Positions 1,835-8,336 of a stretch of 8,336 nucleotides of DNA are shown piece after piece. The stretch's first letter is position 1. Each line of letters begins with the position of its first letter. A program made the position numbers and the translations under genes. A model generated the notes under the pieces. It searched no databases. It saw only the letters and a program-made list of their open reading frames with translations, and was not told the DNA's origin. Source of the stretch: a virus (taxonomy: Duplodnaviria > Heunggongvirae > Uroviricota > Caudoviricetes); IMG/VR virus record IMGVR_UViG_3300012983_000662. One strand, written 5' to 3'.

Positions 1835-2017
1835 ATGTTTCTGATAATTCTCGCGTCACTGGTGGGCGTGCTGGGTGCGCTTTTGCTGGCGTATGGTGCT
1901 TGGCTGATTTATCCCCCGGCGGGTTTTGTTGTTGCCGGGGTGCTGTGCCTGTTCTGGTCGTGGCTGGTGGCGCGATATCTCGACCGTACACAGCCGTCTG
2001 TCGGCGGAGGTAAATAG
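1835..2017 (+). CDS. Small hydrophobic membrane protein, 60 aa, two predicted transmembrane helices, function unknown
   Basis: GAGGT at 1826-1830, 4 nt before ATG 1835. Stop TAG 2015-2017 overlaps the portal GTG start at 2017 (TAGTG). CTG-rich codon usage like the flanking genes. Sequence [60 protein letters not shown] has two hydrophobic stretches and a short charged C-terminal tail. Confidence 0.6.
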
Positions 2018-3258
2018 TGTTCTTTTCGGGATTATTTCAACGAAAAAGTGACGCGCCGGTGACCACGCCAGCAGAGCTGGCGGATGCTATCGGGCTGTCA
2101 TATGACACCTATACCGGAAAGCAGATCAGCAGCCAGCGGGCCATGCGACTGACGGCGGTTTTTTCCTGCGTCAGGGTGCTGGCAGAGTCTGTCGGGATGT
2201 TGCCCTGCAATCTGTATCACCTGAACGGCAGCCTGAAACAGAGAGCCACCGACGAACGTCTGCATAAGCTGATCTCCACGCATCCCAATGGCTATATGAC
2301 GCCGCAGGAGTTCTGGGAGCTGGTGGTCACCTGTCTGTGCCTGAGGGGAAACTTTTACGCCTACAAAGTGAAAGCATTTGGCGAAGTGGCTGAATTGCTG
2401 CCCGTCGATCCCGGCTGTGTGGTACCGAAGCTTAACAGTAGCTGGGAACCGGTCTATCAGGTCACATTCCCGGATGGCTCCACGGATGTACTGAGCCAGG
2501 AGGATATCTGGCATGTGCGCACGCTGACGCTGGACGGACTGGTGGGGCTGAATCCCGTCGCCTATGCCCGCGAGGCAATATCGCTGGCGGCAGCGACCGA
2601 AGAGCACGGGGCCAGACTGTTCAGCAATGGTGCGGTGACGTCGGGTGTGTTGCGTACAGAGCAGACGCTGTCAGATCAGGCTTACGAGCGCCTGAAGAAA
2701 GATTTTGAGGAGCGTCACACCGGGCTTGGCAATGCTCACCGCCCGATGATCCTTGAGATGGGGCTGGACTGGAAGTCGATGGCGCTGAACGCCGAGGACA
2801 GCCAGTTCCTGGAAACCCGCAAGTTTCAGCTTGAAGAAATCTGTCGTCTGTTCCGGGTACCGTTGCACATGGTGCAGAACACCGATCGCGCCACCTTCAA
2901 CAATATCGAAGAACTGGGGCTCGGATTTATCAACTATTCACTGGTGCCGTATCTGACCCGCATCGAACAGCGGATCAACACCGGACTGGTACGAAAAAGT
3001 AAGCAGGGCGTTTATTACGCCAAATTTAACGCCGGGGCGTTACTGCGCGGGGATATGAAGTCCCGTTTTGAAGCCTACGCCACCGGGATTAACTGGGGAA
3101 TTTACTCTCCCAATGACTGCCGCGACCTGGAAGATATGAATCCGCGTCCCGGTGGGGATGTCTATCTCACACCAATGAACATGACCACGAAACCCTCCGA
3201 TGGCAGTAAAGCCGGTAAGCAGAAGGATAACGCCAATGCAGACGAAACAACGTCTTGA
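2017..3258 (+). CDS. Portal protein (HK97-family-like), 413 aa
   Basis: GTG start at 2017 with GGAGG at 2006-2010, 6 nt upstream. Size and position (after terL, before prohead protease) fit an HK97-type portal. N-terminus MFFSGLFQRK... is portal-like. No search was run. Confidence 0.9.
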   Translation: MFFSGLFQRKSDAPVTTPAELADAIGLSYDTYTGKQISSQRAMRLTAVFSCVRVLAESVGMLPCNLYHLNGSLKQRATDERLHKLISTHPNGYMTPQEFWELVVTCLCLRGNFYAYKVKAFGEVAELLPVDPGCVVPKLNSSWEPVYQVTFPDGSTDVLSQEDIWHVRTLTLDGLVGLNPVAYAREAISLAAATEEHGARLFSNGAVTSGVLRTEQTLSDQAYERLKKDFEERHTGLGNAHRPMILEMGLDWKSMALNAEDSQFLETRKFQLEEICRLFRVPLHMVQNTDRATFNNIEELGLGFINYSLVPYLTRIEQRINTGLVRKSKQGVYYAKFNAGALLRGDMKSRFEAYATGINWGIYSPNDCRDLEDMNPRPGGDVYLTPMNMTTKPSDGSKAGKQKDNANADETTS

Positions 3259-3900: not shown

Positions 3901-5106
3901 ATGGCGGTAGATATTAAAGATGTCGAACAGGTCGCGCAGGAGCTGCAGCAGAAGTTTGACGACTTCAAAGCAAAGAACGACAGGCGCGTGGATGCGATTG
4001 AGCAGGAAAAAGGCAAACTTGCCGGGCAGGTGGAAACCCTGAACGGAAAACTCAGCGAGCTGGAAAATCTCAAAAGCGATCTTGAAAAAGAGCTGCTTGA
4101 GCTGAAACGTCCGGCAGGTGGTGTGCAAAATAAACTGGCCACTGAGCATAAAGAGGCTTTTGTGGATTTCCTGCGTAAAGGCCGTGAAGACGGTCTGCGC
4201 GATCTGGAGCGCAAGGCATTGCAGGTGGGCACCGATGAAGATGGAGGCTACGCCGTGCCGGAAGAACTGGATCGCAACATTCTCAACCTGCTGAAAGATG
4301 AAGTGGTGATGCGTCAGGAAGCCATGGTGATCACCGTTGGCGGTTCCGACTACAAAAAACTGGTGAATCTGGGCGGTACGGCTTCCGGATGGGTGGGGGA
4401 AACGGATACGCGATCCCAGACTGCTGCCTCAAAACTGGGACTGATTGAACCTTTCATGGGGGAAATCTACGGTAACCCGCAGGCCACCCAGAAAATGCTG
4501 GATGATGCCTTTTTCAACGTGGAGGCCTGGATCAACAGCGAGCTGGCAACCGAATTTGCCGAACAGGAAGAAATTGCCTTTACCACCGGCGATGGTACCA
4601 AGAAGCCGAAAGGGTTCCTGGCGTATGAGTCCACTGATGAAACCGACAAGGTCCGGGCGTTCGGCAAACTTCAGCATATTGTATCCGGCGAAGCGACGGC
4701 AGTGACCGCAGATGCCATTATCAAACTGATTTACACGCTGCGTAAGGCACACCGCACCGGCGCGAAGTTCATGATGAACAACAACAGCCTGTTTGCCATT
4801 CGTCTGCTGAAAGACACCGAGGGTAACTATCTGTGGCGTCCGGGGCTGGAGCTGGGACAGCCGTCCTCTCTGGCGGGTTACGGTATCGCTGAAAACGAAC
4901 AGATGCCGGATATTGCCGCTGATGCGAAAGCCATTGCATTTGGTAACTTCAAACGGGGTTACACCATCGTTGACCGTATCGGTACCCGCATTCTGCGTGA
5001 CCCGTACACCAATAAACCGTTTGTCGGTTTTTATACCACCAAGCGCACCGGCGGCATGCTGGTCGATTCGCAGGCCATCAAACTGCTGAAGATTGCAGCG
5101 GCGTAA
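3901..5106 (+). CDS. Major capsid protein, HK97-fold, with N-terminal coiled-coil delta (scaffolding) domain, 401 aa
   Basis: AGGAG at 3889-3893, 7 nt before ATG 3901. The first ~100 residues are rich in E/K/L heptad-like sequence (VEQVAQELQQKFDDFKAKNDRRVDAIEQEKGKLAGQVETLNGKLSELENLKSDLEKELLELK). No separate scaffold gene lies between protease and capsid. Size and synteny fit HK97-type capsid proteins. Confidence 0.9.
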   Translation: MAVDIKDVEQVAQELQQKFDDFKAKNDRRVDAIEQEKGKLAGQVETLNGKLSELENLKSDLEKELLELKRPAGGVQNKLATEHKEAFVDFLRKGREDGLRDLERKALQVGTDEDGGYAVPEELDRNILNLLKDEVVMRQEAMVITVGGSDYKKLVNLGGTASGWVGETDTRSQTAASKLGLIEPFMGEIYGNPQATQKMLDDAFFNVEAWINSELATEFAEQEEIAFTTGDGTKKPKGFLAYESTDETDKVRAFGKLQHIVSGEATAVTADAIIKLIYTLRKAHRTGAKFMMNNNSLFAIRLLKDTEGNYLWRPGLELGQPSSLAGYGIAENEQMPDIAADAKAIAFGNFKRGYTIVDRIGTRILRDPYTNKPFVGFYTTKRTGGMLVDSQAIKLLKIAAA

Positions 5107-6816: not shown

Positions 6817-6844
6817 ACCCGCCGCTGGCGGGTTTTTTTATTTT
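6817..6844 (+). terminator. Rho-independent terminator-like hairpin with long T-tract
   Basis: Stem CCCGCC (6818-6823) / GGCGGG (6827-6832) with a 3-nt loop, then TTTTTTTATTTT (6833-6844). The minus strand has no equivalent T-tract, so it is oriented with the operon. Confidence 0.65.
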
Positions 6845-6856
6845 CAGGAGACGAGT

Positions 6857-7561
6857 ATGTCCTCTAATTTTGAGCGTTCGCAACTGACGAAAATTATGAT
6901 TTCGTCTGCACCGGTAACAGCAGAAACCCTGGATTCTGCCAGCTTTCTTGGGCTGAGCTGTACAATCAAAGAAGTGCAGTTTACCGCAGGACAAAAGCAG
7001 GATATTGATGTCACCACGCTGTGTTCTGTTGAGCAGGAAAATATTAACGGTCTTGGTGCCGCGTCAGAGATTTCCATGTCAGGCAACTTTTACCTCAATG
7101 CTGCCCAGAACGCGTTGCGTAGTGCCTATGACAATGACACCACGTATGGCTTTAAAGTTATTTTTCCGTCAGGCAACGGATTTACCTTTATGGCAGAGGT
7201 GCGTCAGCATACCTGGTCTGCAGGAACCAATGGTGTTGTGGCTGCAACGTTTTCCCTGCGTCTGAAAGGTAAACCTGTGCTGACGACAGAGCCGCTAAAA
7301 GTGAAGGTCGATTTAAACAGCACGCTGCAGATTTCTGCCGGAGCGAAACTTGAAATGGCGGTTGAGGCTGCGGGTGGTGTGCCGCCTTATTCTTATGTCT
7401 GGAAGAAAGGTGGATCTCCTGTTTCCGGACAGACGGCGGCAACGTTCAGTAAGGCATCCGCAGTATCCGGTGATGCGGGTGCATATACCTGCGAGATTTC
7501 TGATTCAGCAAGCCCTGTTAACAAGGTGACCTCCACTTCCTGCACTGTTACCGTCAGTTAA
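6857..7561 (+). CDS. Major tail (tube) protein with C-terminal Ig-like domain, 234 aa
   Basis: AGGAG at 6846-6850, 6 nt before ATG 6857. Positioned between the tail terminator and the tail chaperone genes. The C-terminal ~90 residues (PPYSYVWKKGG...SGDAGAYTCEISD...CTVTVS) carry Ig-fold hallmarks: a conserved Trp and a D.G.Y.C F-strand motif. Confidence 0.7.
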   Translation: MSSNFERSQLTKIMISSAPVTAETLDSASFLGLSCTIKEVQFTAGQKQDIDVTTLCSVEQENINGLGAASEISMSGNFYLNAAQNALRSAYDNDTTYGFKVIFPSGNGFTFMAEVRQHTWSAGTNGVVAATFSLRLKGKPVLTTEPLKVKVDLNSTLQISAGAKLEMAVEAAGGVPPYSYVWKKGGSPVSGQTAATFSKASAVSGDAGAYTCEISDSASPVNKVTSTSCTVTVS

Positions 7562-7575
7562 TGAGGATAGATGTG

Positions 7576-7947
7576 ATGACTAAAAATATCCGTAATCTGG
7601 CACTGGCAACGATGTCGGGGTTTCGCCATAAAACCGTTGATGTGCCTGAATGGGAGGGAGCAACGGTTGTGTTACGGGAACCTTCTGCAGAAGCCTGGTT
7701 GCGCTGGCAGGAGATCGTTAAAGCAAAAGATGATGAGACACCGTTATCCGTTGCGGAGCGCGCCCGCCGAAATCTGGAGGCAGATGTTGAACTGTTCATT
7801 GATGTTCTGTGTGATACCGGACTGCAACCTGTATTTTCAGAGGATGATCGTGAACAGGTGATTGCCGTGTATGGCCCGGTGCATGCGCGGCTTCTTCGGC
7901 AGTCTCTGGAACTGATCAGTGATGCCGGCGAGGTTAAAAAAAAGTAG
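7576..7947 (+). CDS. Tail assembly chaperone (lambda gpG functional analogue), zero-frame product
   Basis: GAGGA at 7563-7567, 8 nt before ATG 7576. In-frame alternative starts exist at ATG 7561 (overlapping the major tail stop, TAATG) and GTG 7573. Acidic protein ending ...AGEVKKK and terminating inside a slippery A-run. Located directly upstream of a -1 frame ORF and the probable tape-measure gene. Confidence 0.75.
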   Translation: MTKNIRNLALATMSGFRHKTVDVPEWEGATVVLREPSAEAWLRWQEIVKAKDDETPLSVAERARRNLEADVELFIDVLCDTGLQPVFSEDDREQVIAVYGPVHARLLRQSLELISDAGEVKKK

Positions 7948-8249
7948 CGCTTCCGGGGATGCGTTTTCTGATGATGCTGGCGCTCAGGATGGGGCGCACA
8001 TTGTCAGAGTTACGCCGGGAAATGTCCGCATCAGAAATCATGATGTGGGCAGAATTTGACAGGTTCAGCCCGCTGGGGGACGAACGGGCTGATATCCGGG
8101 CTGCCCAGATTGTTTCAGCTATTTACGGTGCGCAGGGGGTTAAAGTACTACTGAATGATGCGCTTCTTCAGTGGGAACAAGAGCAGACAGAAGGCGTCTC
8201 AGATCCATTTGCCGGACTGGAAAACGCGCTTTTAATAGTGTCTCAGTGA
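7576..8249 (+). CDS. Tail assembly chaperone frameshift fusion (lambda gpGT analogue), produced by -1 ribosomal slip at 7938-7944
   Basis: The ORF 7959-8249 is in the -1 frame relative to the G-like ORF and is open back through the slip site (codons after the slip read GTA GCG CTT CCG GGG ATG...). Its own ATG at 7959 has no convincing Shine-Dalgarno motif. Predicted junction: ...GEVKKK-VALPGMRFLMML... Confidence 0.65.
7938..7944 (+). promoter_or_regulatory. Programmed -1 ribosomal frameshift slippery heptamer A_AAA_AAG
   Basis: Sequence GTTAAAAAAAAGTAG: zero-frame codons AAA AAG at 7939-7944 are followed by stop TAG 7945-7947. The heptamer fits the X_XXY_YYZ rule and is identical to the E. 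coli dnaX slip site. Confidence 0.7.
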
Positions 8250-8257
8250 GTCAACAT

Positions 8258-8279
8258 AACCGCTTCGGCGGTTTTTTTT
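8258..8279 (+). terminator. Terminator-like hairpin with UUCG tetraloop and T8 tract
   Basis: AACCGC-TTCG-GCGGTT (stem 8258-8263 / 8268-8273, loop TTCG 8264-8267) followed by eight T (8272-8279), 9 nt after the stop of the frameshift ORF. Confidence 0.55.
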
Positions 8280-8295
8280 CGTCCGGAGAATGAGT

Positions 8296-8336
8296 GTGGC
8301 GACATTACGTGAACTGATTATTAAAATCTCGGCAAA
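8296..8336 (+). CDS. 5' end of next gene, probably tail tape-measure protein (partial)
   Basis: GGAGA at 8285-8289, 6 nt before GTG 8296, with the frame open to the window end (VATLRELIIKISA...). Identity is inferred only from position after the G/GT pair. The in-frame ATG at 8290 abuts the Shine-Dalgarno motif and is unlikely to be the start. Confidence 0.45.
   Translation, partial: MATLRELIIKISA

Follow-up and report, generated by a model that had tools for sequence, protein, structure and literature searches.

In tailed phages, the G/GT chaperone frameshift is reportedly defined, following Xu and colleagues in 2004, by two open reading frames (ORFs) between the tube and tape-measure genes, the second of which overlaps the first and lacks a good start of its own, by a slip site that is in phase within the overlap and conserved in position among relatives, and by production of both G and GT in a low, fixed ratio, the two being needed to assemble the tail but missing from the virion. 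A further point of reference is dnaX (gamma/tau), in which a single tRNA-Lys slips on the heptamer A_AAA_AAG with a Shine-Dalgarno (SD) sequence ~8–11 nt upstream and a stem-loop ~6 nt downstream of it; there, ~50% of translation shifts and the shifted product is the shorter one. In lambda, where the G/GT strategy was originally demonstrated, the heptamer is G_GGA_AAG and, according to a summary of the lambda work (Levin, Hendrix and Casjens 1993; Xu, Hendrix and Duda 2004, 2013, 2014), a low-level frameshift sets a ratio of roughly 30:1.

The closest described systems are the HK97 gp13/gp14-type pairs, which share their two Pfam families (PF06222 and PF06223), gene order and −1 direction of shifting with the locus described here. 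Two cassettes from the 'Phage_TAC' cluster, similar to HK97, have been tested, with a Stx-phage cassette giving 7 ± 0.79% −1 frameshifting in E. coli and an HK542-type GCG_GGA_AAG_CCG_TAA cassette giving 6% (Antonov 2013, PMC3711429). Among the clusters in Table S4 of Sharma 2014 (PMC4066793) is A_AAA_AAG_25 (ECs1801, tail assembly chaperone, 53 genes), for which −1 PRF 'can be safely inferred'.

Here we analysed a viral contig of 8,336 nucleotides (hereafter, the window), in which a sequence-only reading had proposed a −1 frameshift of the G/GT type at a heptamer identical to that of dnaX. Our analysis makes it very probable that a programmed −1 ribosomal frameshift at this site yields the GT tail-assembly chaperone of an HK97-like siphophage or prophage. 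Judged by its sequence, the pair is a member of the HK97 gp13/gp14-type chaperones, and all the defining features that sequence can show are present.

Genomic context

The window comprises the late structural operon of an HK97-like siphophage or prophage, with the following features:

66–1823, large terminase
2017–3258, portal
Between portal and major capsid in the operon listing, prohead protease
3901–5106, major capsid protein
After the major capsid protein, head-tail connector and tail-completion genes
6857–7561, + strand, gene for the major tail (tube) protein, which carries an Ig-like domain at its C terminus; marks the 5′ edge of the conserved module
7576–7947, + strand, G, tail assembly chaperone ORF of 123 aa, HK97 gp13 family; zero-frame product ending ...GEVKKK before TAG
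7938–8249, + strand, T, −1 frame extension of 103 codons, lambda gpT family (Pfam PF06223)
8296–8336, + strand, start of the tape-measure gene (GTG 8296), with a GGAGA SD 6 nt upstream; downstream boundary of the module

The order is major tail, G, T and tape measure, with two ORFs lying between the tube and tape-measure genes. Identification of the tube gene at 6857–7561 comes from a match to phrog_158 (major tail protein, 1.5e-108), with Pfam Ig_2 above its cut-off and weak, sub-threshold matches to Phage_TTP_11 and Phage_tail_2; PGAP names it 'immunoglobulin domain-containing protein'. The tape-measure call at 8296 is based on the PGAP annotation of a 99.7%-identical E. coli R1 prophage together with SD analysis. 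Eleven E. coli phage records, among them Evi, phi467, PhiR49_2 and the vB_Eco series, match the window at 96–98% DNA identity, and the HK97-like prophage module is found in 902 of 5,426 complete E. coli genomes.

Several features of this region are worth recording in their own right. Between the large terminase and portal genes lies a strongly hydrophobic ORF of 60 aa (1835–2017; a PGAP hypothetical, WP_000478567.1); a small membrane protein would not be expected among head genes. Beyond the 3′ end of the window, in the E. coli R1 prophage (L003, 14349–17051), a tail-tip gene of ~900 aa carries the PGAP name 'sulfur carrier protein ThiS'; it is evidently a misnamed large tail protein. Terminator-like hairpins with T runs bracket the major tail/G/T block, one at 6817–6843 (ACCCGCCGCTGGCGGGT followed by T7) and one at 8258–8280 (AACCGCTTCGGCGGTT followed by T6–8), and rho-independent terminators are annotated at the equivalent positions in phage HK446. 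These bracketing hairpins may set differential mRNA levels or stability for the tube and chaperone genes versus the tape-measure gene.

Both halves of the pair belong to known chaperone families. Along its entire length, G aligns with Pfam PF06222 (Phage_TAC_1; E 2.4e-58, 195.9 bits, the cut-off being 25), and it also matches the solved HK97 chaperone, PDB 2OB9 'Tail assembly chaperone' (E 4.5e-49); its start, ATG 7576, is preceded by a GAGGA SD 7–8 nt upstream. T, whose frame stops at 8247–8249, matches PF06223 (Phage_tail_T; 1.2e-18, 67.7 bits against a cut-off of 25.9). The 224-position profile phrog_14766 aligns with G at positions 1–121 and with T at positions 123–220, a match pattern that has the layout of a fused GT protein. 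Neither half had a match in NCBIfam. Through PF06223, the T half is homologous to lambda gpT; the G half matched only PF06222, the HK97 gp13 family, and lambda gpG belongs to a different Pfam family.

Anatomy of the probable shift site

The 3′ end of G reads GAG GTT AAA AAA AAG TAG in zero-frame codons (7930–7947), and the elements around the junction are as follows:

7930–7934, + strand, SD-like GAGGT (Glu-Val codons), a 5-base SD-core match, 3 nt upstream of the heptamer
7935–7937, + strand, TAA stop in the −1 frame; 5′ limit of the interval open to shifting
7938–7944, + strand, slippery heptamer A_AAA_AAG within an A8 run (7936–7943), phase verified; predicted site at which a tRNA-Lys pair slips −1
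7945–7947, + strand, TAG stop of G in the zero frame, directly 3′ of the heptamer; 3′ limit of the interval open to shifting

The heptamer stands in X_XXY_YYZ phase, with the eight A residues followed by G at 7944. The −1 frame opens at its first base, 7938, leaving a G/T overlap of 10 nt (7938–7947). Because the −1-frame TAA lies immediately 5′ and the G stop immediately 3′, the two frames can be joined only within these 10 nt, which pins the shift to the heptamer. The sequence-only reading had described the downstream ORF as open in the −1 frame through the site, and this is true only just; that it is open by the narrowest possible margin strengthens the case. Every coordinate given in that reading, from the ...GTT AAA AAA AAG TAG end of G and the heptamer to GAGGT and the ATG at 7959, proved correct.

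The heptamer alone is not beyond chance, but its position and phase are. Two copies of AAAAAAG occur in the 8.3-kb window, against 1.64 expected; the second, at 1047–1053 in the terminase gene, has the phase AAA_AAA_G, a non-tandem-slip arrangement, and there is no sign of recoding there. The frequency of the heptamer is not significant on its own; the signal is carried by its position and phase, by the homology of both ORFs and by conservation. By our own arithmetic, which assumes uniform base composition, the chance of finding any canonical heptamer in the sole in-phase slot is ~64/4^7 = 0.004, and that for the three best E. coli motifs in the same slot is ~2e-4.

Around the junction, the −1 frame reads ...CRRG* KKVALPGMRFLMMLALRMGRTL..., and the predicted GT junction is ...EVKKK|VALPGMRFLMM....

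Conservation across the chaperone family

We compiled a census of 203 PF06222-type chaperone loci from phage records, IMG/VR contigs and species-representative genomes, which reduced to 48 distinct local sequences; a scan of genome contigs contributed 15 loci, and two scans of viral contigs widened the set. An in-phase A_AAA_AAG was the commonest slip site, present in 31 of the 48 distinct sequences and carried by loci from Escherichia, Yersinia, Serratia, Xenorhabdus, Pseudomonas and Burkholderia. Of the other 17, all except three retain an in-phase A_AAG core, the exceptions being two apparently disrupted loci and the A9-C run of a Halomonas phage. In the two disrupted loci, L091 (Leclercia adecarboxylata) and L202 (an IMG/VR contig), the G frame stops prematurely and the T frame is short; these look like indel-disrupted copies or assembly errors.

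Variation at the site is informative about what is retained. Members of the HK97 subgroup (HK446/HK97 type; L004, 1560–1587) read CGG GAA AAG, so that HK97 itself has GGAAAAG, an in-phase G_GAA_AAG and a non-canonical heptamer, rather than A_AAA_AAG; HK542 has lambda's G_GGA_AAG; and a large Klebsiella subgroup (L102, 1590–1605) has no more than GCA_AAG before a TAA, the overlap here too being 10 nt. From the HK97 and Klebsiella subgroups, the family's conserved shift-site core appears to be a single in-phase A_AAG, with tRNA-Lys in the A site, rather than the full heptamer. This in-phase A_AAG lies at a fixed distance of 22–23 nt upstream of the codons for the T-domain motif F-L/M-M-x-L-A-L-R, and the distance from slip site to FLM motif in HK97-type and Stx-type loci is the same as in the window. 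The window's slip site is in phase within the overlap, at a position conserved among relatives.

Across the family, the A run varies from 3 to 9 residues, with 6 in Stx-type loci, Bcep176 and phi1026b, 3–4 in the HK97, HK542 and Klebsiella types and 8 in the window's clade. Conservation thus applies to the phase and the AAG rather than to a long homopolymer. Among close relatives of the window, A8-G-TAG is kept in 83 of 83, whereas the non-coding T run of the downstream hairpin (8258–8273) varies among 7, 8 and 9 residues in the same loci, a contrast that points to purifying selection acting on the A run.

The HK97/HK446 and Stx-phage proteins share 64–68% amino-acid identity with those of the window. 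Stx-phage members have an identical A_AAA_AAG followed directly by TAG, and the same arrangement, with a stop directly 3′ of the slip site, is also found in Yersinia and Klebsiella relatives; an adjacent stop codon is not universal in the family. The window clade departs from the HK97 and Stx types in its GAGGT 3 nt upstream of the heptamer and in the length of its overlap, which is 10 nt, with the −1 TAA just before the heptamer, compared with 25 nt for Stx-type and 52 nt for HK97-type loci.

Candidate stimulatory elements

We examined the surroundings of the heptamer for elements that could raise the rate of shifting. All 83 close relatives carry GAGGT, whereas none of the Stx-type, Yersinia, Xenorhabdus or phi1026b relatives has it; GAGG stands instead 7 nt upstream in some Serratia, Pseudomonas and Bcep176 relatives. 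A stimulatory SD sits 8–11 nt upstream of the slip site (Huang 2018), and an SD duplex next to the E site is reported to lower −1 frameshifting (Larsen 1994, as cited in Huang 2018). GAGGT as a dnaX-like stimulator was accordingly rejected, its spacing being wrong and the motif not conserved in the family. Its presence is probably incidental, and were it to pair with 16S rRNA, the effect would at most be a mild attenuation. The earlier doubt over its role was well placed, given a motif not conserved outside the immediate clade and a 3-nt spacing reported to lower shifting.

Downstream of the heptamer, single-sequence folding gave one strong structure:

7961–8015, + strand, strong clade-specific hairpin (dG −26.7 kcal/mol, z −3.0)

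This hairpin, which starts 16 nt beyond the heptamer, falls in the opening codons of the T domain and has ATG 7971/7974 inside it. Stimulatory structures act 5–9 nt downstream of a slip site, and a 16-nt spacer is therefore too far for a canonical stimulator. Across 13 relatives, RNAalifold returned 0 consensus pairs downstream of the slip site, and when the window hairpin was imposed on the alignment, 52.7% of cells were paired versus 51.1% in shuffles, with no excess covariation. With this spacer, no consensus pairs and no covariation, the hairpin was rejected as a conserved family stimulator; it could mask internal initiation, to go by its predicted fold. A weak hairpin at 7946–7965 was also rejected, as it has a 1-nt spacer and is disrupted by C7948A in 16 relatives. 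An Rfam scan of 7700–8336 gave chance-level hits only and matched no frameshift-element family. No downstream stimulatory stem-loop was conserved at the right distance, and the 13-relative alignment held no consensus pair.

Taken against dnaX, the window has an SD-like motif at 3 nt rather than ~8–11 nt, and hairpins with spacers of 1 and 16 nt where a dnaX-type stem-loop would lie 5–7 nt downstream. With both the SD spacing and the stem-loop differing, the window site is not a dnaX-type cassette beyond the heptamer itself. The outcome would differ as well, the shifted product here being the longer one and the expected frequency a few per cent. We infer that the heptamer and its immediate surroundings, namely the adjacent stop and the longer A run, suffice without a dedicated stimulator.

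Expected frameshifting efficiency

The Stx cassette of Antonov 2013 corresponds to a Stx-phage locus in our census (L005), whose G is 68% identical to the window G and which has the same AAA AAG TAG. By analogy with this homologue, the window site would be expected to shift at a similar rate. In lacZ reporters in E. coli, A_AAA_AAG gave 0.29, 4.3 and 39% frameshifting with no stimulator, the moderate IS911 stimulators and the strong IS3 pseudoknot, respectively, and G_GGA_AAG gave 0.28, 3.8 and 43% in the same series (Sharma 2014 Table S3, PMC4066793). The two heptamers are thus of the same efficiency class in E. coli, and the difference from lambda's heptamer is without functional weight. The sequence-only reading had stressed that the heptamer was dnaX's rather than lambda's; this holds but is unremarkable, A_AAA_AAG being the family majority and equally shift-prone.

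Because the bare heptamer gives 0.29% and we found no conserved stimulator, the rate here could be below that of the Stx homologue. The adjacent stop is a candidate to account for the 7% of the Stx cassette versus the 0.3% of the bare heptamer, two values obtained with different reporters.

Proposed mechanism and alternative explanations

The frameshift reading draws on the anatomy of the site, the homology of both halves, synteny, conservation, the 7% measured for the Stx cassette and the poor start of T. Under this model, most ribosomes would translate G (7576–7944) and terminate at TAG 7945–7947 to give the 123-aa chaperone, and a minority, probably a few per cent, would slip one base back at the heptamer. 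During the slip, the single E. coli tRNA-Lys species would occupy AAA (7939–7941) in the P site and AAG (7942–7944) in the A site and re-pair to AAA/AAA at 7938–7943, after which reading would resume as GTA GCG CTT CCG GGG ATG... and continue to 8249, yielding a 224-aa G-T fusion. On the model of lambda, G would coat the tape-measure protein together with the G portion of GT, the T part would recruit the tail-tube protein, and a low, fixed GT:G ratio would be set by the frequency of slipping.

The same fusion could arise before translation if RNA polymerase added one A on the A8 run (T8 template), generating a minority mRNA with G and T in frame. Programmed transcriptional realignment occurs at homopolymers of ~8 nt or longer (Antonov 2013, PMC3711429), the run here has 8 A residues, and the product, ...EVKKKVALPGM..., would be identical to that of ribosomal frameshifting. 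Indeed, all routes, including a single-tRNA slip at the second Lys codon, give this junction, and protein data therefore cannot discriminate among them. Against the polymerase route, the family conserves a phase-specific A_AAA_AAG or A_AAG rather than run length, with only 3–6 A in some types; the Stx cassette, with 6 A, already reaches 7%; and the invariant terminal G, which places AAG in the A site, matters for tRNA-Lys slippage and not for the polymerase. We thus regard transcriptional slippage as very unlikely to be the main mechanism, while a minor contribution is possible. A second elaboration concerns the clade's local context, in which A8, GAGGU next to the E site, stops bracketing the 10-nt interval and a hairpin burying ATG 7971/7974 could form a distinct device for tuning the GT:G ratio. 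Were this so, attenuation by the SD would be offset by the extra slip opportunities of A8 or by transcriptional slippage, and the hairpin at 7961–8015 would suppress stand-alone initiation of T. Outside the clade, not one of these elements is conserved, which makes the tuning device speculation, and we consider it unlikely.

A separate T gene, initiated or reinitiated at ATG 7959 or 7971/7974 after the G stop with the heptamer merely incidental, is what the clade's annotations imply, as every clade record examined has its own T CDS from ATG 7959 or a nearby start. The spacing of ATG 7959, about 11–12 nt after the G stop, is compatible with termination-reinitiation, and GGGGA lies 11 nt before ATG 7971. 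Yet T overlaps G in the −1 frame by 10 nt and has no good start of its own: ATG 7959 lacks an SD at functional spacing, the nearby GGGG standing at spacer 0 (duplex dG −4.5), whereas SD matches precede most of the operon's other genes at 3–8 nt. Nor is the Met at 7959 conserved in Stx-type or HK97-type relatives, and one close relative has Val (GTG). Further against independent expression are the in-phase slip site, whose distance from the T-domain FLM motif is shared by several genera, the existence of a fused-length PHROG profile, and the experimental detection of the frameshift product for homologous cassettes; in lambda, moreover, T is made only as GT, according to a summary of the work (Levin 1993, Xu 2013). 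An independently expressed T is accordingly highly improbable. There remains the notion that the A run arose by chance where two genes meet, or that the prophage is a decayed remnant, with no functional recoding. The number of AAAAAAG copies in the window, being near expectation, would fit a chance run, but position, phase, homology, synteny and conservation all oppose it, and the comparative data effectively refute it; against decay, the window's stretch of the late operon is intact, and phages Evi and PhiR49_2 have the same module. The probability left to this notion is negligible.

Discussion

Programmed −1 ribosomal frameshifting is thus the reading that we favour for this locus. The proposal of a G/GT-type frameshift of a long-tailed phage, first made from the sequence, is borne out by gene order, Pfam and PHROG matches, a family-wide slip site and a homologue that shifts at 7%, and its corollary that the downstream ORF is not an independent gene stands on the lack of a usable SD at 7959, the non-conserved Met and the fused-length profile.

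Public annotation of the clade does not reflect this. None of the four clade records examined (RefSeq/PGAP E. coli R1, Evi, vB_EcoM-606R7 and PhiR49_2) has a joined GT; PGAP names the G half 'phage tail assembly chaperone' and the other half, started at ATG 7959, 'phage tail assembly protein T', and Evi and PhiR49_2 list two separate chaperone CDSs. More distant relatives do carry joined G-T CDSs, as in HK446 ('similar to HK97 Gp14', 'tail assembly chaperone') and Burkholderia phage Bcep176 (69, 69'). ON470580.1 gives the name 'tail assembly chaperone' to a +1-frame ORF of 46 aa (7919–8059), almost certainly in error and as a result of the unrecognised frameshift.

The G/GT frameshift is an already known, textbook feature of long-tailed phages, and the biology described here is not new. 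The value of the finding is limited to annotation correction in a very common E. coli prophage family, in which a rule combining a PF06222 ORF, an in-phase A_AAG or A_AAA_AAG and a −1 ORF matching PF06223 would fix the records.
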